DNA of 64,000 nucleotides from a virus (lineage: Duplodnaviria > Caudoviricetes), in IMG/VR virus record IMGVR_UViG_3300028380_000482, positions 43,564 to 107,563 of that record, one strand, 5' to 3'. The translations under genes and the position numbers were made by a program. A model generated the notes under the pieces. The model saw only the letters and a program-made list of their open reading frames with translations. It was not told the DNA's origin and made no database searches. Shown here in pieces: positions 1,236 to 64,000 of the stretch (position 1 is the first letter of the stretch; every line of letters starts with the position of its first letter).

Positions 1236-2215
1236 AAACGAACACTCAAGTTATCACTGATAGTTATGCTCTGTACAATAACGATTGCTTAGAGATTCTA
1301 CCTACATTACCTAGTAAAAGCGTGGGCTTATCGGTGTACTCACCTCCATTCGCGACATCCTCGGGGGCGTTATACACATATTCATCCTCAGACCGGGACC
1401 TGTCTAACAGTAAGGATTACGGTCAGTTTTTCGACCACTACCGTTTCCTCGTGAAAGAGATAGCGCGGGTAACAATGCCGGGAAGAGCAAGTGCGGTTCA
1501 TTGTATTGACATTCCCTCTGGCAATAGTGGGACGGATTATTTGATCGATTTTCCCGGCGATATTATCCGCCTGCATCAAGAGGAGGGGTGGAAATACGTT
1601 GCGCGTTATTCGATCTGGAAAGAGCCCCTTGCCGTCAGAAATCGCACGATGGCGAAGAATCTGGCACACAAAACCATTGTGGATGATTCCTCGCGATGCA
1701 GTGCAGCAGGGGCAGACTATCTGTTAGTGTTTCGGCGGGAGGGGGAGAACACGATCCCGATTGCGCACCCCAACGGATTGTTGACCTATGCCGGATCACG
1801 GCAGATGCCCGCCGATGTATTGCGCTATCGTGGCTGGACCGGCAACCAGATTGAGAACAAGTTCTCACATTGGATTTGGCGACAATACGCCAGCGCCTTT
1901 TGGGATGACGTGCGGATCGAACGCGTACTCCCCTACAAAGAATCACGGGAGGAAGAAGACGAAAAGCACGTCCATCCGTTACAACTCGATGTGATCGAGC
2001 GGGCGTTGGTCTTGTGGAGCAATCCTGGGGAAACCGTCTTAAGTCCCTTTGCCGGGGTTGGAAGTGAAATTTTTGGAGCGGTCCAGAACGGACGGAAGGG
2101 CATCGGCATTGAACTCAAGCACAGTTATTTTCGCCAGATGGTGAAGAACCTCGCTTCTGTTCAGACCTCGCAGCACGAGCAAGGCTCACTCCTGTTCAAA
2201 GAGAGCGTCGCGTGA
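1232..2215 (+). CDS. DNA methyltransferase (N4-C/N6-A, beta-class order)
   Basis: SPPF catalytic motif near N-terminus; HVHPLQ and VLSPFAGVGSE SAM-binding motif near C-terminus. Confidence 0.9.
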   Translation: MKTNTQVITDSYALYNNDCLEILPTLPSKSVGLSVYSPPFATSSGALYTYSSSDRDLSNSKDYGQFFDHYRFLVKEIARVTMPGRASAVHCIDIPSGNSGTDYLIDFPGDIIRLHQEEGWKYVARYSIWKEPLAVRNRTMAKNLAHKTIVDDSSRCSAAGADYLLVFRREGENTIPIAHPNGLLTYAGSRQMPADVLRYRGWTGNQIENKFSHWIWRQYASAFWDDVRIERVLPYKESREEEDEKHVHPLQLDVIERALVLWSNPGETVLSPFAGVGSEIFGAVQNGRKGIGIELKHSYFRQMVKNLASVQTSQHEQGSLLFKESVA

Positions 2216-5267: not shown

Positions 5268-5870
5268 ATGTCATACGAGAATTTCAGAACTGAGGCAATT
5301 ATTGCAAATTGGCGAGTCGGAACCGATAAGACGACGGCGCGCTTTACGGTCGAGCATCACAACAAGTTTGGTCAGCGGGTGGTCCGCACGGTGAAACATC
5401 CGTTTCGGGATGAGTGGCTCAAGCCAAGCGTAACGCGCTGGTGTACGCAAGCTGCCGTTGCTGACGATGAGAGCGGTGCACTCGTTGTGGTACTCATGCA
5501 CGAAGAATGTTTGGTCGTGGTTCTCAATGCCCGCGATTTTACGAAACAACTTTTTTGTTTTTATCCGAGCGATGAAGGAACAGGCTCCCTCATGTGCCAA
5601 TTGCAAGATTTAGCCGATCAAACTCCGCGTGCTGAGACCCGGACGATTGCCATTGAGACGCCCCTAGATGTGACCTTGCGCGCGGCTATTCATCGGCACT
5701 TGCGCCGCATTGCCGACATGCCGGGAGGCACGACGGGCGCATTAGCGAAACAGACAATCACGATCTTTTCACCGAAGGATTCACAGGCCGTGGAGACGGA
5801 GACGGCCCATACGTTAGCAGACCTGCTCCAGTCCGCCAGTGGTCGTGAATTTCAGTATTCAGTACGATAA
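5268..5870 (+). CDS. hypothetical protein
   Basis: 200-aa ORF with AAGGA RBS. Confidence 0.65.
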   Translation: MSYENFRTEAIIANWRVGTDKTTARFTVEHHNKFGQRVVRTVKHPFRDEWLKPSVTRWCTQAAVADDESGALVVVLMHEECLVVVLNARDFTKQLFCFYPSDEGTGSLMCQLQDLADQTPRAETRTIAIETPLDVTLRAAIHRHLRRIADMPGGTTGALAKQTITIFSPKDSQAVETETAHTLADLLQSASGREFQYSVR

Positions 5871-6116
5871 ACTAATCAGACTGTTTCTCTGTTCCATAAG
5901 GGCTTTCTCTGACTCTATTGACTGCGTTGATAACATTCAGTGAAGTCGTGAGAGTGTCTGACCGAGTACAAGCGGTCGAGCGGCAGAGAAACCACAGGCC
6001 GGGGCGCCGCATCACCCTTCGCGGCACCGATCATAAAGTCAGCCCCGGCTTTGTGACCTTCCCCCATAACAAGACCTTTTTTCTTTACAGCAGGTACATT
6101 TTTATTATCTCCCCTC

Positions 6117-6145
6117 TTGTCAACAGGTACAATTTAATGTATTAT
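6117..6145 (+). promoter_or_regulatory. sigma70-like promoter with AGGTNCAAYTT spacer motif
   Basis: TTGTCA-17-TATTAT; AGGTACAATTT at 6125-6135; degenerate copy AGGTACATTTT at 6092-6102. Confidence 0.65.
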
Positions 6146-6170
6146 TAGCCAAAGGAAGGAAGATCACAGC

Positions 6171-6434
6171 ATGTGCGTCTGTACGGTCGATGTTCTGTGT
6201 GAAGAAGCGAAAGAAGATTGGATTGCGTTGAACGAATACCGGGAAACGCCACAGAAGCAGCGCATATTGAATAACCGATGGTATGAGGAAACAAAAGCGG
6301 CGTTCGTTAAACATCGGACCTTTGCCCTACACATCAAGCAGAGGACCGGCGGGAGCACAGGCTACGCGTATTACCCCGACTGGCGCGAGCGATTGAAACC
6401 AGACTGGAAACCAACAAAGGAGCAGAAATCATGA
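6171..6434 (+). CDS. hypothetical protein
   Basis: AGGAAGGA RBS, first gene after the promoter. Confidence 0.6.
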   Translation: MCVCTVDVLCEEAKEDWIALNEYRETPQKQRILNNRWYEETKAAFVKHRTFALHIKQRTGGSTGYAYYPDWRERLKPDWKPTKEQKS

Positions 6435-6994
6435 CACCTGCCGAACGTGACTTTTTGTGCAGTATCCGCAAGGCCGAGGGACTCGAACCGGTCTTGCGCG
6501 TGTTACTGGATAATGGACAAACCAACAACGACACGGCACCAGGAAAACTGACACCGGAAGTGACAGCGCGCATCTTTGCTCTCCGAGGACAGGGGAAGTC
6601 CGCTCGTGAAATTGCGGACATGGTGAAGCGGTCGAAAACCTCGATTGACTCACTCTTTGCGGCAGAGCGGCAGAGATCGGCGTTACGGGCGGCGAAGGCC
6701 ACGGACGGACAACGCGACCCGCACGACCACAGGGTGTTGCCCGAGGTTCTTCCACGTGACCCTCGCATTGGCCGATTGCCGCTCGTCAAAGGTATGTCTC
6801 CCTTCGGCAAGAAGCAACCTAAACCACGCCGCCCGATCACGCCGAAGGAAGAATCTTTGATCCTCAGTCTTACGCGCCAAGGAACCAGCGTGGCCGACAT
6901 CTCCGACCAGCTAGAGCGATCAGAAACCGGCATTCGTCATGTCTTAGAGCGCAACGGATTGCAACCACAAAAGAGGAAAGGAACTTCCAAATGA
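6431..6994 (+). CDS. DNA-binding protein with two HTH domains
   Basis: IFALRGQGKSAREIADMVKRSKTSI and ILSLTRQGTSVADISDQLERSETGI. Confidence 0.75.
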   Translation: MTPAERDFLCSIRKAEGLEPVLRVLLDNGQTNNDTAPGKLTPEVTARIFALRGQGKSAREIADMVKRSKTSIDSLFAAERQRSALRAAKATDGQRDPHDHRVLPEVLPRDPRIGRLPLVKGMSPFGKKQPKPRRPITPKEESLILSLTRQGTSVADISDQLERSETGIRHVLERNGLQPQKRKGTSK

Positions 6995-7671
6995 ATACTC
7001 ACCATGAAGTGTTTAGCGTAACGGTCAGAGACGGAGAACTCGCGTTCGGTGTCCGAGAAATAACCGGCAAGGAAGTCTTTCGGGCGATTTTCACCAAACC
7101 GGCAGCGGAGGAGCTAGCAAAACTCTGTGACAAGTGGCCGGGGCGCGACTGGCCCTTTTATCGAGGTCTGCTGAGCACAGAGCGGTTCATTCTTCCGTGT
7201 GAGAGCGAAGATCCGACGCCCCTCGCAGAGCCACGATCAGAACAAGAGAAGACCGGATTGCAAGAGGTGCTCTCCAAACTGGAATCTTTAATCCAGACGA
7301 TGGAGGACATCGGCGTCGCGCGAGACTTCCTACCCCAAGAAGACTGGCTTGCCATCTTCTATGATCCCTCCGATCCGAGTTTTGATGATGTCGCGGAGCT
7401 ACTACATGCGTGGCAAGACAAAGCAGAGCAGCGCGTTGCTGAGGAAACGGCAAAGAAGGACGCGGCGAAACATGTTGATCGAGCGGCAGAAATCCTCAGG
7501 TTCTATCGGGGACTAACGCCGGGCGAGCTGCAAGAAACCGAAGGAACGATCACTTCGTTACTCGCCGATCTGCTGCACTACGTACAAGAAGACATGACTG
7601 AAAAACCGCAGGACGTGCTTGCTGAAGCGGTGGACAATGCCGTTCGGTACTTTGAGAGCGAATCCAAATAA
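6991..7671 (+). CDS. hypothetical protein
   Basis: ATGA-coupled 226-aa ORF. Confidence 0.65.
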   Translation: MNTHHEVFSVTVRDGELAFGVREITGKEVFRAIFTKPAAEELAKLCDKWPGRDWPFYRGLLSTERFILPCESEDPTPLAEPRSEQEKTGLQEVLSKLESLIQTMEDIGVARDFLPQEDWLAIFYDPSDPSFDDVAELLHAWQDKAEQRVAEETAKKDAAKHVDRAAEILRFYRGLTPGELQETEGTITSLLADLLHYVQEDMTEKPQDVLAEAVDNAVRYFESESK

Positions 7672-57388: not shown

Positions 57389-58795
57389 TTACTCTTCGGC
57401 GAGGTCCTCTTGCTCTGGGCGCGGAATTCCCAGTTCTTTTCCTACCCAGTTCAGCAGATCGGGGAACTGACCAACGACATCGAAGCCTGCCGAAGCAAGG
57501 GTATTCATCATCGTAGAAACCATCGTAAAATCACTCTTTGTCACTGCGCTATGTGCCAGCTTTGGCATGCGTGCGATGTCCATACCATTGAGGCGGAGAA
57601 GCCGAGGAATCAGATAGGAATTTACGATGCTCGTCGGTTCGTCGAGAATTGAATTTACAGCTTGTGAGAACAAGTCGGTCATGTTGGTAGACAGGGCATA
57701 TGAGCCTCTGGATTCCATTCCCAGGAACAACCATTGGGCTAACACACTTTGCGCAATGCTGTGTTGATACCGTGTGATCGCCTCCGCACTCCCCGCCGCA
57801 AACCCGCCGTCTCCTCCACCGGTCAACAGGGTGAGGTCATACATTTTGTTATTGCTCTTATCGTAGGCCAGTGGATAGACGATGCCCCGCTGCTCGTTCA
57901 TCCCGATTGAAGTCACCAGTTTCTCAAAGGCAGGCTTCTGTTTTCCGGCTTCCGTAGTGGGGTCAAGGGTAGCGGGTGGCACCCACGCAATCACGAGCCC
58001 CTCACAGTTGCGAGAGATACCAATAGCCTCCGCCGTTTGAATTCCTTTCAAGTACGCCCATGAAGGATAGGCAGAACGCAGTAAGGGTTTCCCTTCTGGG
58101 TTGTTCTTAGTGGTACGAAATCGATAGTGCAACGCTTTATCGATGGGAATGGTTCGTTCGCTCGCGCCGTAGATGGCCGACTGCCGAAAAGCGAGGACAT
58201 CGCCTTGCTCGGTCAAATCCCAGCGGAGCAGGGTATCTGCCGGACGTAAGGCGATCCGTCGTAAGCCAATCCGGTTATCGTCGAACTTGCTATTGCGGTT
58301 CGGGTCTTGTGGCTGGTCTCCCCCTCGCACCTTGTAGACGATCTCGTGATAGGCGAAGCCGTAGGACAGGTTGGCATCCATTGCGGCAACCACATGCTGA
58401 GGCCAGGCGTCTTCCATATCCTCGAATAGCACTTCCGAGATGAAGGTCGCTTGGTCTACGTCTGCTTGGAGGGTCTGGTCAAAGGGAACGATTTTCCATT
58501 GCACGCCTCTCACGAGTTGTTCTATAACGAAGAAGATAGCGCCTACCGTGTCGTTGTTCTCCCGGAACTCTTTCAATTTCTTGTAGCGTTGTGAGCCTTG
58601 CAGCTCCTTTATTATCTCCTCGAAGATTTGGCCGCCAAAATGACGAACGCCAGAAACGCCTAACTCTTCGAAGAGCTGTCTCCCTGATGTCCCCTCTTGC
58701 GGCGTATCGGGCGGTGTAGGGCCAGAAGGAGGTCCCCCCGGAGGAGGGGGCGAGGGAGGGACTGCCTTTAAAATTCGATTATTCCGACGTGCCAT
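57389..58795 (-). CDS. portal protein (DUF935-like)
   Basis: ELGVSG, YGFAYHEIVYK, NNPEGKPLLRSAY, IAQSVLAQWLFLG...GSYAL. Confidence 0.9.
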   Translation of the reverse strand: MARRNNRILKAVPPSPPPPGGPPSGPTPPDTPQEGTSGRQLFEELGVSGVRHFGGQIFEEIIKELQGSQRYKKLKEFRENNDTVGAIFFVIEQLVRGVQWKIVPFDQTLQADVDQATFISEVLFEDMEDAWPQHVVAAMDANLSYGFAYHEIVYKVRGGDQPQDPNRNSKFDDNRIGLRRIALRPADTLLRWDLTEQGDVLAFRQSAIYGASERTIPIDKALHYRFRTTKNNPEGKPLLRSAYPSWAYLKGIQTAEAIGISRNCEGLVIAWVPPATLDPTTEAGKQKPAFEKLVTSIGMNEQRGIVYPLAYDKSNNKMYDLTLLTGGGDGGFAAGSAEAITRYQHSIAQSVLAQWLFLGMESRGSYALSTNMTDLFSQAVNSILDEPTSIVNSYLIPRLLRLNGMDIARMPKLAHSAVTKSDFTMVSTMMNTLASAGFDVVGQFPDLLNWVGKELGIPRPEQEDLAEE

Positions 58796-59453: not shown

Positions 59454-61256
59454 TTACCCTACCGTCAGATTCCAGACGCTGGTCTTCTGCATCCCCTCCC
59501 CCTCGAAGGATGGAGCCACAACCACAGGCATGAGGAAGGGGGCCACAATCTCTGCCACCAGGTCGTAAATTTCGGCAAAGAAGTAATCGTCGCGGCCTGA
59601 GTTCCGTTCGGTCCAAATATAGTACCGCTCGCCTCGGCCTTCTTGTTCCACCCGAATCGGGCACGTCATCTCCTTATAGTATTTCCCGCTATCCAGGGTG
59701 TGCGCGTTACTGGGCAGGACGCACTTCTTCGTCGCGTAGACAGACGCCAGCCGGTCACAGATCATGGTCCGGTCAATACTCACCGTCTGTGTGACTTGGT
59801 CAATCTTCGTTTCGTGTCCTTTGCTAATGTCACTCCGGACAAACTGCGTCGCATACAGGAAGGGGATCTTCGCTTGCAGTTCTCGCACTTTGCGGGTCTC
59901 CGGGTTCAAGTCGATACACGCGGCTTTCACTGAGTAGCGATCGAATAAATCCCCCAGGTCGGAGAAGTCTAACACCTTGCCAATGAAGACGGCTTTCCGT
60001 TTCCCATCAGTATGGACCGAGATCCGCACATGCAGATAGCGTTTGCCCACGTCCACACCAGCAGTGACCACGCCGTTACTGAGGAGCGAGTCAGGCATGA
60101 GGTAGTCCGTTTCTTTGCACGCATTCAATACGTCTTCTGTGAGGCCTGCCCCTTCCGGTCGGTAGGGTAAGCCTAAGTCTGAGTTGTAACAGACCATCAA
60201 CTTAGACGCGTCGCCCTCAGCATCTGCAAACCCCTTCTCTTCGGGATTCGTCCACAGTTGAGAGAGCGGCGTCTTGGGATCTAACAATCGGTGTAAGAAG
60301 AATCCAGGCCGCAGAGAGTCAGGATTCTGCGGTTCCCATCGGCCTGTGGGCATCAGCGAGAATCGATCCTCCCACGGACTGCCACACTCACGACAGAAGA
60401 GGAAAATGTCTCGTCCTGATTCGATGTTCCAGTCTCGATCTAACAGCGTGACCTTCCCGCCTGATTCTTCGACCATGTTCGTAAAGAAGGAAATCGGCTG
60501 CCATTCGCCACAGGAAGGACAGGGGACCATCCATTCCCGTTGGTCTGACTTCTTGTATTCAGCATCGATGCCGTAGTCTGGGAGTGTAGGAGTGGAGACC
60601 TCAATCTTGTAGATTTCCCGACCTGCACCCTTTCCTGGGGTGTCGCCAAAACTGGACTTGAGACGATCATAGGCTAACTGAATGTTGTCTTGGTCACAGC
60701 GGTCATACTCGTCAATGATGACGTAGTCGGCAGGATACTCGATAAAGGACGAGGCGCTATTGGAACCGACGAACTTGAGTCCGCCTTTGCCGATGTGTTT
60801 GAGCACGCCAGAGTTGGAGCCTTCGGCTGAATGAATCAACTCGTTGTAAAAGGGGCTGGTGAGAATCGAGCGCCCAATGCGGTTCGCAACGAAAGTATAC
60901 ATCCCGCGTTCAATCGGCATCACATAGAGACCGTTCAATCCGCGTGAAGATAAGTGAAAGGCTTTCGCGGTGAGCCATTCCGTGACCCCGATTTGCGCCG
61001 ACTTGCGTACGACCATCGATTGCGCGGGACATTCGTATAACTGCACGAGCCACGGCAGATGAGTAAAGTCGAGCGGAACGCCTTTATGGGTACGATGGTA
61101 TTGTGCGGCCCAGGGAAAGAAGGCAGCGTTAGGAAGTGAGGTCTCCGTGGTCAGTTCCGTCAGGTAGCGCGAGACCTTGCGCTCGAAAACGCTGACTAAT
61201 GGCAAACTGAAGTCGAGTGAGTTGGCGTTGGTCCGTGATGACTTCGAGAATCGCAT
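59454..61256 (-). CDS. terL: terminase large subunit (lambda gpA-like); start uncertain
   Basis: RKSAQIGVTE (Walker A), VIIDEYD (Walker B), STPT, SDQREWMVPCPSCG, AGVDVG nuclease motif. Confidence 0.92.
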   Translation of the reverse strand: MRFSKSSRTNANSLDFSLPLVSVFERKVSRYLTELTTETSLPNAAFFPWAAQYHRTHKGVPLDFTHLPWLVQLYECPAQSMVVRKSAQIGVTEWLTAKAFHLSSRGLNGLYVMPIERGMYTFVANRIGRSILTSPFYNELIHSAEGSNSGVLKHIGKGGLKFVGSNSASSFIEYPADYVIIDEYDRCDQDNIQLAYDRLKSSFGDTPGKGAGREIYKIEVSTPTLPDYGIDAEYKKSDQREWMVPCPSCGEWQPISFFTNMVEESGGKVTLLDRDWNIESGRDIFLFCRECGSPWEDRFSLMPTGRWEPQNPDSLRPGFFLHRLLDPKTPLSQLWTNPEEKGFADAEGDASKLMVCYNSDLGLPYRPEGAGLTEDVLNACKETDYLMPDSLLSNGVVTAGVDVGKRYLHVRISVHTDGKRKAVFIGKVLDFSDLGDLFDRYSVKAACIDLNPETRKVRELQAKIPFLYATQFVRSDISKGHETKIDQVTQTVSIDRTMICDRLASVYATKKCVLPSNAHTLDSGKYYKEMTCPIRVEQEGRGERYYIWTERNSGRDDYFFAEIYDLVAEIVAPFLMPVVVAPSFEGEGMQKTSVWNLTVG

Positions 61257-61800
61257 CTTGGTGGACTTTCAAAAATAACACAAGCTGTTCGGCGGTCGCG
61301 ACCTGTCCCAATTCTAACGCTCGGCGGCGCTCACTTTCAATGAGGCGCTGCTTGCGATCAATCTGCTTGCTGGCTTCTTCCCACGCGAGGTAGTCCTGCG
61401 TCCCACGGGCAATGAGGGTATTCATGTCGGTGAGGGCAGTACGAATGCCGTCCTGATCTTGTTCCCGGAGGGCCGCCGTGAGGGCATGAAAGGCGGACTG
61501 TAACTGACGCCACAAATGGCCGGACTCACCAGAATCGACCCGCTTAATAAGATCGAGAATGCGGGTGTGAACAACCGAGACTTCATCGCGCAGTTCCAGC
61601 AAGTGAGGATCGAGGCGGGTGTGTTCGTAGTCGGCAACAAGACGGGTCGGCAGGTCGCGGGAGTATCGGCCTGTTTTGGTGGAGGGATGGGCGAAGCCAC
61701 GAGGGGTCTTGCCGCCATGCATATAGCAGGTTGGACGCCCAATCATGGCGTGACGGGTACATTGTTGCCCGGATCGTTTTGACTTCGCCGTACATTGCAT
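61129..61800 (-). CDS. terS: terminase small subunit-like protein
   Basis: CTAKSKRSGQQC...CYMHGG motif; TGRYS; directly upstream of terL. Confidence 0.75.
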   Translation of the reverse strand: MQCTAKSKRSGQQCTRHAMIGRPTCYMHGGKTPRGFAHPSTKTGRYSRDLPTRLVADYEHTRLDPHLLELRDEVSVVHTRILDLIKRVDSGESGHLWRQLQSAFHALTAALREQDQDGIRTALTDMNTLIARGTQDYLAWEEASKQIDRKQRLIESERRRALELGQVATAEQLVLFLKVHQDAILEVITDQRQLTRLQFAISQRFRAQGLALPDGTDHGDLTS

Positions 61801-61848
61801 AACCAACCAAGTACACTCTCTACACCAAGAGGGCTATAGCGAGGGATG

Positions 61849-63609
61849 CTACTCTGGCGAAGCAGGGGGGAGAAGGTCAGGCACCTCAATGGTGCCGAAC
61901 TCTTGAGGGATTGCTTTTACGTTGCCCCGGTAAAAGACAAGTACGTTTTGATGAGTCTTTCCTAATTTTCGGTAGCTCCCGAATTGGCGGCCAATGCGAA
62001 TAGGGAGCGAACCAACCGCCGTCACTAATATCGCCTCATTATAGAGGGTCATTCCGGCATCCTGAAACGCACGAATGGTTTCGCTGACAAAGTTTCGGTA
62101 ATAGCCATGTGAATCGCGGAAGTCACCGACGACGAAACAGGCAAATCGGTTGGGTTTCAACGAGGTGAGACTCTGAGCAATGATCTCTCGGTACTTCGCT
62201 AAGAATTGCTCGTAATCGAGGGTGCTCAAATCGCGGGGGTCATCGCTATAAACTTCTAAGTCACCGTAGGGGGGGCACGAGAAAATAAAGTCATATTCTC
62301 CAGGCGCAAGGGCTTGTGAGTCTCGGCTATCGCCGACAATCCAGTGCGGTCGGGGTGGCTCCTGAATCGTGCTGCCATGTTTAATGGCATCATTATCTAT
62401 GAGCTTTTGGTAGGTCAGTCTGCTCATGGGTGCAATAATATCGCCGCCTCCATCAGCAAAATGTTTACATATCCGTTCGGCCTCTGTGGAACCAAAGAGC
62501 AAATCAAGCGAAGCGCGAAAGGCCACATAGGCCGGGAGTTTATTGCCGTCATCGTAGCACTTCAGCAGTTTGTACCGATTTCTGACAATCAAGGTTCCGT
62601 TCTTATTGAGAGTAAAAGGCGAGGCGATACAGCCAAAGGGTTTATCGGGAGTATCATGCAGCCCACAGAGATCAGCCGTAGTTTTGAAAGGACATTTGTG
62701 ACAGCCAGGGAGAGGTTGTAAAAGCCCGTCGATAACCTGCCCTCCTTGAGATTCGATAGCCGGTTGCTCAGTCGGGTGAATAGTAATCAATGTTCCGGTG
62801 GTGCTCGTACTACTTTCGCAGCACGTAGCATGACAGGTCGTCCGAATATACTCAGGATCACAGCCGTTGAATCGGAGCCGTGCCATTGCCTCAGAAACTT
62901 TAACAGGAACAACCTCGTCTCCGGGACCGCGCGTCAAAATACGGTCTGCCTGTTGTTTATTGGCTGCTACTTGCTCGGGCCGAAGGTCAATGCCCGTGTA
63001 CTGATACCCAAGGATAGCGGCGACAATGCCACGGACACTGCCACCGGCAAACGGGTCAAGGATGCTCCCACCAGGGGGACAGAACCACTTATAAGCCAAC
63101 TCGCAGAGAACAGGGTCGAAGATCGAGGTTCCGGTTTGTGACTGTTCGTTGCCAGCGTCTTCGCTCGGAGCGAAGACGCTATTGATTGGCAGATTCCCCA
63201 TTGCTGGCTGCCGACCAGCCGCAAGATTCTTGCGGCTGGTGTCGTCGAGGTTCTCACGGGCGCCTTTGACCCAGGTCAGATTCTCTTGTTTTGATTGACG
63301 GCGATCGCCGTCAATCCGCAGTTCTTCGTTGGTATCTTGAATTCCCGCGTTTGCCATCCGTGATTTTTTATATTTGGCCTCAACGCCAACAGTGCGTGGC
63401 TCGGCCAACGCACTGTTGGCCCCCGTCCCACCAGGGGCGAGTTTATTGGTTTTCATCCGATGCTCACCGCGCATCAAATCTTGCCCGTGTCTTTGGGCAA
63501 GATTTGATGGTTTGGGATTTTTCATATGCAAGTCGCCCCTTGGGAACTTCCCATCTTTTCCCATCTTTGCCGCTGGCCATCGCCCCCCCCCTGGAATCGC
63601 TTTCGCCAT
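61849..63609 (-). CDS. DNA methyltransferase with an inserted YkgJ/FliB-like Cys-cluster domain
   Basis: SIFDPVLCE, ILDPFAGGSVRG, FIFSCPPY; insert of about 190 aa with C-x8-C-x3-CC and CPF...C.LH...KP..C..SPF. Confidence 0.85.
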   Translation of the reverse strand: MAKAIPGGGRWPAAKMGKDGKFPRGDLHMKNPKPSNLAQRHGQDLMRGEHRMKTNKLAPGGTGANSALAEPRTVGVEAKYKKSRMANAGIQDTNEELRIDGDRRQSKQENLTWVKGARENLDDTSRKNLAAGRQPAMGNLPINSVFAPSEDAGNEQSQTGTSIFDPVLCELAYKWFCPPGGSILDPFAGGSVRGIVAAILGYQYTGIDLRPEQVAANKQQADRILTRGPGDEVVPVKVSEAMARLRFNGCDPEYIRTTCHATCCESSTSTTGTLITIHPTEQPAIESQGGQVIDGLLQPLPGCHKCPFKTTADLCGLHDTPDKPFGCIASPFTLNKNGTLIVRNRYKLLKCYDDGNKLPAYVAFRASLDLLFGSTEAERICKHFADGGGDIIAPMSRLTYQKLIDNDAIKHGSTIQEPPRPHWIVGDSRDSQALAPGEYDFIFSCPPYGDLEVYSDDPRDLSTLDYEQFLAKYREIIAQSLTSLKPNRFACFVVGDFRDSHGYYRNFVSETIRAFQDAGMTLYNEAILVTAVGSLPIRIGRQFGSYRKLGKTHQNVLVFYRGNVKAIPQEFGTIEVPDLLPPASPE

Positions 63610-63834
63610 TTACAGTGCGTACCGTTCTTTAAGGGCGGCAATCCCCGCGTCAATCAGCGTTTGGGGATCACGACCGAGCTGCCGTTGAAAGTCAGGCCGG
63701 GTTGTGGCTTCCCAGGCGCGCATGATCGCCGTTTTATGTTCGCCTAACAGAGGAAACTTACTGGCAATCCGTAACACGCAAATCCAGTCTTGTTGTGAGG
63801 CCGCCTTTTTGAGGAGCGAGAGTTTAGTAACCAT
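63610..63834 (-). CDS. hypothetical protein, possibly leaderless
   Basis: ATG lies about 7 nt after the -10 box; abuts the methyltransferase gene. Confidence 0.65.
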   Translation of the reverse strand: MVTKLSLLKKAASQQDWICVLRIASKFPLLGEHKTAIMRAWEATTRPDFQRQLGRDPQTLIDAGIAALKERYAL

Positions 63835-63840
63835 GCCCTC

Positions 63841-63869
63841 AATATACAATAAGTTGCACCTATTGTCAA
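63841..63869 (-). promoter_or_regulatory. sigma70-like promoter with AGGTNCAAYTT spacer motif
   Basis: TTGACA-17-TATATT; AGGTGCAACTT in the spacer. Confidence 0.7.
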
Positions 63870-64000
63870 CTCTCTGTATATCTGCATATTGATTCTTTAT
63901 TGTACAAAAGCTCTCCCTGCTCCATCACCCCTCACCGTATGTCCGCTGTCGGTCAATTGGGCTGCCGGTCTCGGACTCCCTCCAGGTGCCCCCCCCCCCC

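Follow-up and report, generated by a model that had tools for sequence, protein, structure and literature searches.

A phage DNA methyltransferase with an inserted eight-cysteine domain of the YkgJ/DUF3109 superfamily that may add a second step to DNA modification

We analysed a 64,000-nucleotide stretch of viral DNA (Duplodnaviria; Caudoviricetes), hereafter called the window, which is the last 64 kb of the 107,563-bp IMG/VR record IMGVR_UViG_3300028380_000482. Its minus strand encodes P0001, a protein of 586 amino acids (aa) in which a domain with eight conserved cysteines, designated INS, separates the two halves of a DNA methyltransferase. We show that INS belongs to the YkgJ/CxxCxxCC superfamily, that it is an autonomous unit, and that it maintains a tight, permutable partnership with methyltransferases whose catalytic motif reads CPPY. 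INS may contribute a second chemical step to the modification of DNA. A methyltransferase split by an internal YkgJ/FliB-like cysteine-cluster domain had been proposed from the letters of this DNA without database searches (the original prediction). The parts of P0001 are listed below; their limits were defined largely with local profile hidden Markov models (HMMs) made for the methyltransferase halves MT_N and MT_C and for INS.

61849-63609, minus strand: P0001, catalytic subunit of a split ParB-type amino-DNA methyltransferase with an inserted cysteine-cluster domain (586 aa; PF01555 and PHROG matches)
63133-63609, minus strand: low-complexity linker, aa 1-159 (homologue alignment)
62932-63132, minus strand: MT_N, half that binds S-adenosylmethionine (SAM), aa 160-226, with motifs X, I and II (local HMM boundaries and Pfam profile positions 163-219 of 221)
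62353-62931, minus strand: INS, eight-cysteine DpdM/DUF3109-like domain of the YkgJ superfamily, aa 227-419, ~193 aa (HMM boundaries, residue conservation, profile comparison, AlphaFold2)
62818-62862, minus strand: N-terminal cysteine motif C250-x8-C259-x3-C263-C264 (conservation; aligns with C-x4-C-x3-CC of DUF3109-like proteins)
62629-62694, minus strand: second cysteine block with C306 (CPF), C315 and H318 (LCGLH), K323-P324, and C327 (KPFGC) (conservation and profile alignments)
62557-62559, minus strand: C351 (conservation)
61852-62352, minus strand: MT_C, catalytic half, aa 420-586, with motif III (WIVGDS), motif IV (CPPY) and motifs V-VIII (local HMM boundaries)

The insert and its host methyltransferase

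P0001 matched PF01555 (N6_N4_Mtase), the sole Pfam family detected, in two stretches with 38.1 bits (gathering cut-off, 26.7). The PHROG profiles phrog_498 (E 9e-78) and phrog_12517 (E 2.2e-98) both flank the insert and skip it. Motif I, DPFAGG, occupies aa 185-190 (nucleotides 63040-63057), the catalytic motif IV, CPPY, occupies aa 445-448 (nucleotides 62266-62277), and the motif order of the Rossmann core is X-I-II-III-IV..VIII. A cysteine at the first position of the catalytic motif is the family norm, present in 138 of the 140 F..PPY catalytic-loop matches among the collected proteins. By its profile matches and intact motifs, P0001 is shown to be an amino-type (N6-adenine or N4-cytosine) DNA methyltransferase.

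The distance from motif I to motif IV is 260 aa in P0001, and the best 120 homologues fall into two classes, with either 67-80 or 250-280 aa between these motifs. Only two to three residues are found at the insertion point in the insert-free enzymes of Microcystis phage Mae-JY30, Listeria phage B054, Enterococcus phage phiFL3A, and mycobacteriophage Vincenzo. Such a short turn indicates that the domain was inserted cleanly where motif II leads over to motif III. The original prediction was thus correct about an internal domain splitting the enzyme, and the extent that it gave, about 62360-62925, lies close to the HMM limits of 62353-62931. In the survey of homologues that had been suggested along with it, the site was occupied by INS, by a PALP domain or by the short turn.

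The two cysteine strings named in the original prediction were located at aa 249-264 and aa 303-332. An alignment of 79 homologues with the insert (53-67% identity) showed no variation at C250, C259, C263, C306, C315, H318, C327 or C351 and at least 90% conservation at C264, which argues that the pattern is not due to chance. It is repeated in 74 stand-alone relatives. Besides the cysteines, H318, K323, and R345 are conserved throughout the family.

Profile alignments revealed the origin of INS. With hhalign, 234 INS segments aligned to 32 PF03692 members (93.8%, E 2.9e-8, 114 columns), pairing the cysteine motifs, an ...E...I segment, and a CPF...C..H..KP..C..P block. The alignment to eight DUF3109-like members was closer still (96.7%, E 3.2e-10, 137 of ~190 columns) and took in all four N-terminal cysteines plus the C-terminal half. 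The comparison members of both families had been gathered from bacterial genomes. A family alignment was required for the assignment, as hhalign with one sequence only, that of E. coli YkgJ, gave no significant result for INS. On the strength of these alignments, the YkgJ/FliB assignment is right at the superfamily level, and the profile comparisons show that INS belongs to the YkgJ/CxxCxxCC superfamily with DUF3109 (DpdM) as the nearest named family.

Searches with individual sequences gave fainter signals. PF03692 appeared below threshold in 8 of the 79 insert-bearing relatives (best E 7e-4), and PF11307 was weak in relatives, reaching 22.5 bits in a protein of locus L057 (cut-off, 33.5) and E 0.022 in gp50 of Clostridium phage phiCTP1. 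Two relatives had been named 'Fe-S-cluster containining protein' by JGI. The insert alone matched no Pfam family at E<=10, intein and Hint families included, and no NCBIfam family; PHROGs and PADLOC hold no family for stand-alone INS. An Atlas search with the insert gave no usable match, and the stand-alone member P0173 groups with Atlas clusters that bear PF03692 and are mostly viral.

Structure models were confident. From the alignment of the insert-bearing homologues, AlphaFold2 predicted aa 150-586 with a mean local confidence (pLDDT) of 89.7 and a predicted template modelling score (pTM) of 0.79, and the insert alone with values of 92.3 and 0.87, respectively. The best match of the insert model in BFVD came from an uncultured phage, a stand-alone protein of 184 aa (template modelling scores 0.85/0.90, root mean square deviation 1.7 A, 33% identity), annotated in UniProt as a zinc- or iron-chelating domain protein. 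Among solved structures, the best Foldseek match in the PDB had E 2.9, the best VIA-align Z score over 48,161 chains was 2.3, and a PDB sequence profile search with the insert gave nothing at E<=1. The model of whole P0001 matched only generic Rossmann methyltransferases in the PDB. Of the checks proposed for the insert, profile comparison thus delivered homology to PF03692 and DUF3109, while the Foldseek search yielded no PDB match.

As predicted, the insert is not an intein. This candidate was rejected on the missing Hint/intein matches, on junctions that do not contain the required residues, and on the occurrence of the domain in terminal and free-standing positions.

Partnership between the insert and the methyltransferase

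Searched exhaustively with phmmer, 1.84 billion representatives yielded just 295 clusters (50% identity) that match the insert. As far as this search tells, INS is a compact, almost virus-only branch of the YkgJ/DUF3109 superfamily. Among 50,697 deposited phage genomes, INS was found only in phiCTP1 and its relative FA88.

The three local HMMs were mapped on 253 collected proteins. INS lies inside the methyltransferase (MT_N-INS-MT_C) in 96 of them, at its N-terminus (INS-MT_N-MT_C) in 25, and at its C-terminus (MT_N-MT_C-INS) in 24; about 74 are stand-alone INS proteins of 165-245 aa. Eight of nine inspected stand-alone INS genes on viral and metagenome contigs are located directly beside a gene for a CPPY methyltransferase, in either order. 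In phiCTP1, gp50 (INS) overlaps gp51 (methyltransferase; L003 4025-5525), and contig L048 contains a natural split form with MT_N-INS in one open reading frame (ORF) and MT_C in the next (5680-7135).

In a FastTree phylogeny of the 234 INS segments, the architectures are intermixed, with 68 Fitch parsimony changes. INS identity co-varies with methyltransferase identity (r about 0.5), and pairs of different architecture match pairs of the same architecture in similarity for both parts. One form with N-terminal INS and one with C-terminal INS, for instance, are 74% identical in INS and 83% in the methyltransferase. Thus, the two parts co-evolve despite their reshuffled order, which fits two mutually docking units rather than a selfish insertion. 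Phage enzymes without the insert have cores with 55-63% identity to P0001, and the genomes of these phages contain no INS gene, indicating that INS is an add-on. From the gene architecture, we infer that this methyltransferase lineage has in INS a partner module dedicated to it and evolving along with it. We found no published description of this cysteine-cluster partner in the library searched, where PMC10516641 is the only work to mention DUF3109.

A mobile insertion of the intein or homing type, selfish and of no use to the host enzyme, would account for the frequent shifts in position and for split forms such as those of L048 and phiCTP1, but it is highly improbable given that no Hint, intein or nuclease match and no solved-fold nuclease match was obtained, that INS is homologous to YkgJ/DUF3109 and co-diverges with the methyltransferase, and that strong purifying conservation acts on its Cys, His, and Lys residues.

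Possible roles of the insert

DpdM (DUF3109, PF11307; 'E. coli homolog YkgJ', motif CxxxCxxCC) is a phage enzyme that methylates dPreQ1 in DNA (PMC10516641). Models of DpdM predict two metal pockets, one formed by the first three cysteines and a distant one, the other by the fourth cysteine and three later ones (PMC10516641). DpdM represents the top profile match of INS. Both are phage-encoded, have a size of ~180-200 aa, and combine an N-terminal C..C..CC-type motif with four further cysteines, whose order in INS is the same as in the DpdM models and whose spacing is similar. DpdM acts on DNA, and INS presumably does so as well. The two differ in the spacing of the N-terminal motif, which is C-x8-C-x3-CC in INS and CxxxCxxCC in DpdM, and INS stays under the PF11307 threshold. 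Furthermore, DpdM is a stand-alone protein encoded in dpd clusters together with DpdA and preQ1 genes, whereas INS is tied to a Rossmann methyltransferase and not to a transglycosylase.

FliB is a flagellin lysine N-methylase that carries a [4Fe-4S] cluster, uses SAM, and contains a CX4CX3CC motif linked to PF03692 (PMC8598068). It shares with INS the superfamily and eight conserved cysteines, and its methyl transfer is SAM-dependent without a Rossmann or SET fold. In contrast to INS, FliB has a protein substrate, forms a larger, membrane-associated oligomer, and is linked neither with DNA nor with another methyltransferase. YkgJ and the other PF03692 proteins are homologous to INS by hhalign and have the CPF...C..H..KP..C..P block in common with it. 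INS, however, lacks a literal CxxCxxCC, the second cysteine being replaced by an upstream one, and has an extra C-terminal helical half of ~70 aa. FliB (CX4CX3CC) and DpdM (CxxxCxxCC) likewise deviate from the literal motif.

By analogy with DpdM and FliB, we infer that the eight cysteines form two four-cysteine metal sites. C250, C259, and C263 together with C351 would probably hold a [4Fe-4S] cluster, and C264, C306, C315, and C327 are likely to bind Zn or a second cluster. With such sites, INS could carry out a second chemical step, dependent on metal and SAM, on the DNA handled by the Rossmann module; this is our preferred reading, to which we assign an even chance. The step might be a further N-methylation or a FliB-like SAM cleavage chemistry. 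INS would dock on the methyltransferase in all arrangements, be it as an insert, as a terminal fusion or as the product of a neighbouring gene, the ParB-like N-part described below would target or load the enzyme on DNA, and the phage genome would carry a mark beyond plain N6-methyladenine (m6A) or N4-methylcytosine (m4C), probably as a protection against host restriction. A two-activity enzyme that produces more than m6A/m4C is therefore plausible but unproven.

Several observations weigh against a second catalytic step. The 107.5-kb genome contains no tRNA-guanine transglycosylase (TGT) or DpdA at E<=1, so that the known substrate of DpdM is absent; the same result rules out the 7-deazaguanine (DpdA/preQ1) pathway. 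P0001 itself remained under the Pfam thresholds for both PF03692 and PF11307. The stand-alone INS gene of L041 has no methyltransferase within 6 kb. In one case, INS is fused with a protease-like domain, which fits an adaptor better than a catalytic role. Finally, INS sits between the SAM-binding and catalytic halves, which we take to be the place where alpha-class (Dam-type) methyltransferases carry their recognition domain.

The position of INS and its adaptor-like fusions, which include unrelated enzymes, could also mean that it is a non-catalytic module, stabilised by metal, that serves for DNA recognition, clamping or docking as a plug-in specificity subunit, while the methyltransferase makes only m6A or m4C. 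The methyltransferase core has no obvious recognition domain of its own, and the DpdM models contain a positively charged groove with a proposed role in DNA binding (PMC10516641). Against such a module, INS itself is not basic (isoelectric point 6.3), and its only characterised relatives are enzymes. The close core relatives mentioned above manage without INS and without a copy of it elsewhere in the genome, and the family-wide conservation of the non-cysteine residues H318, K323, and R345 also counts against it. In other phages, the same loop contains a domain of an enzyme dependent on pyridoxal phosphate (PLP), which is hard to see as a recognition domain. Neither the fold nor the cysteine cluster of INS is related to the recognition domain of alpha-class methyltransferases; moreover, INS can occur at either terminus or as a free-standing protein, and close relatives dispense with it. 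We consider an ordinary recognition domain unlikely, and a non-catalytic module in the wider sense the main alternative, though a less probable role than a second chemical step.

In a third, improbable role, INS would be an Fe-S sensor of redox state or oxygen through which the methyltransferase is turned on or off. This role would be compatible with the oxygen sensitivity of the FliB cluster (PMC8598068), and the only cultured phages with INS, phiCTP1 and FA88, infect an anaerobe. No sensor-type partner or regulatory logic was seen, however, and fusions of INS with PLP and 2-oxoglutarate (2OG) enzymes suggest a pathway over regulation. For the redox-sensing enzyme offered in the original prediction, we found no evidence here.

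These fusions and gene neighbours are diverse. In P0134 and P0154, the fusion partner of INS is a PALP domain resembling 1-aminocyclopropane-1-carboxylate (ACC) deaminase, and in P0155 and P0157 it is an AspH-like 2OG oxygenase. No viral or metagenome contig was found to encode P0155. A viral protein of 796 aa combines a methyltransferase, a DUF3109-like segment (PF11307, E 1.1e-4), and PALP. In gp70 of Pseudanabaena phage Pam4 (L004 2101-4590) and gp7 of Erythrobacter phage ZS04 (L005 2074-4512), PALP occupies the identical turn of the methyltransferase, and in mycobacteriophage Vincenzo, the PALP protein gp2 (phrog_3650; L061 1406-2275) is encoded by the next gene after the ParB-methyltransferase. 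Mycobacteriophage AlanGrant likewise encodes a methyltransferase as gp1 and PALP as gp2; these PALP-bearing phages are cultured ones. The marine metagenome contigs L084-L091 contain conserved operons in which an AspH-like gene is followed by a PALP gene (phrog_3650) and a small methyltransferase-like gene; some of these last genes have SPPD or SVPD instead of SPPY. In L082, a gene for an AspH-like oxygenase precedes a stand-alone INS gene.

The PLP and 2OG links suggest a modification pathway, which is as yet unproven. Tentatively, and with less confidence than for the second step itself, the CPPY ParB methyltransferases, the eight-cysteine DpdM-like domain, the phage-specific, ACC-deaminase-like PLP enzyme of phrog_3650, and the AspH-like 2OG oxygenase might be interchangeable parts of an undescribed toolkit for post-replicative DNA hypermodification. 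The Rossmann module would present an exocyclic amino group, and the accessory enzymes would build or tailor an adduct beyond methyl. P0001 would be the two-module version of this toolkit.

Gene context and implications

P0001 is encoded in the following surroundings, the minus-strand order being ParB part, promoter-like site, 79-aa ORF, P0001, 225-aa ORF, large terminase subunit (TerL), and candidate portal.

63897-64000, minus strand: 3' tail of the ParB-like N-part ORF (242 aa in total after junction closure; the rest lies at record bases 1-~633, L046, outside the window)
63841-63869, minus strand: sigma-70-like promoter TTGACA-17-TATATT (consensus match only, 11/12)
63610-63849, minus strand: 79-aa ORF between the ParB part and the methyltransferase part (phrog_18237, E 7.8e-9)
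61129-61806, minus strand: 225-aa ORF ahead of TerL (phrog_3678 only; small-terminase candidate by position)
59454-61256: gpA-type TerL (GpA_ATPase, E 3e-27)
57389-58795, minus strand: candidate portal ORF (position only)

The first bases of the record are a C8 run and its last ones a C12 run (window 63989-64000). Upon removal of the 8-nucleotide overlap, an ORF runs in frame across the junction, indicating that the genome closes at this tract and that the methyltransferase is split. The N-part ORF stops after 242 aa, and its tail aligns to the linker of full-length homologues. It matched the ParB-like family phrog_15396 (E 1.7e-18) and positions 34-205 of the 633 positions of phrog_498, of which P0001 covers 351-612; the two parts do not constitute a single ParB-methyltransferase protein. 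P0001 is only the C-terminal two-thirds of a ParB-methyltransferase, a point missed by the original prediction. A Pfam ParB_N screen of the genome gave nothing, which is a false negative because the PHROG ParB profiles match the N-part ORF. Rfam found nothing over 61000-64000 and hence no sign of an intron between the gene halves. A PPFSVL..WQ.RK element follows the ParB-like domain in the N-part and precedes the methyltransferase core in relatives. On the coding strand, the junction is a G12 run inside the coding region, which may be prone to slippage or may just have caused the assembly to break here.

Fusions of ParB-like domains and methyltransferases are known from a survey of phages (PMC12704722), and ParB-like activators of phage DNA-modifying dioxygenases have been demonstrated (PMC13229309). 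The phrog_498 fusions of phages with the N6_N4 domain have the same core as P0001, with 63% identity in the protein of Microcystis phage Mae-JY30, share the CPPY..DLEVYSD block, and are adjacent to terminase genes in several phages too. They differ from the system described here, where a 79-aa gene separates the ParB part, which has an ORF of its own, from an INS-bearing core.

The linker that precedes the core of P0001 is disordered. It contains GQDLMRGEH at aa 42-50 and LTWV..G.R at aa 111-118, both kept in relatives. The conserved linker motifs (GQDLMRGEH, IPGG, LTWV.G.R..LD..SRK) vary in order and number and resemble short linear interaction motifs. Codons 6-9 of the methyltransferase gene (IPGGG) form a G9 run at 63583-63591 on the minus strand. 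Bacterial methyltransferases can undergo phase variation through such tracts; as the IPGG peptide motif is retained in relatives, this one may be incidental. The phage encodes a second PF01555 methyltransferase of the ordinary beta-class at window positions 1328-2143 on the plus strand (54.3 bits).

The small upstream ORF of the original prediction was recovered as the 79-aa ORF. It starts with TTG at 63849 or ATG at 63834, and its stop codon abuts the ATG of the methyltransferase gene. The promoter-like site ends 7 nucleotides before the ATG at 63834, which fits the description of this partner as leaderless. The layout of ParB part, 79-aa gene, and methyltransferase recurs in the viral contigs L047 and L048; in one of the two, the small gene is encoded on the other strand. 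INS/methyltransferase genes are adjoined by homologues of the 79-aa gene, which lie on either strand, in 6 of 11 related viral loci (L047 5319-5528, L048 5410-5634, L049 2894-3124, L052/L054 5764-5973, L057 8332-8556). This recurrence marks the phrog_18237 gene as a conserved companion. Its 79-aa product had no match in Pfam, PADLOC or the PDB, and phrog_18237 is a family without known function.

The pair had also been placed just upstream of terS. The 225-aa ORF does precede TerL and is a terS candidate by its position; its only match is phrog_3678, a family without an assigned function. It opens with a Cys/His-rich stretch that ends in HGG. We found no evidence here for the suggested packaging-linked modification.

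DNA modifications decide the outcome of restriction and other host defences for phages and have yielded useful enzymes. INS extends a superfamily of which only two members, FliB and DpdM, have been characterised, both of them methylating, with an unsolved fold and an unclear mechanism. Together with its methyltransferase, INS forms a co-evolving enzyme pair with an unusually free permutation of domain order. With this pair, there is a concrete candidate to be tested for a novel DNA modification or, failing that, for a new type of methyltransferase accessory subunit, and the cultured phage phiCTP1 offers a system in which to look for the modification.

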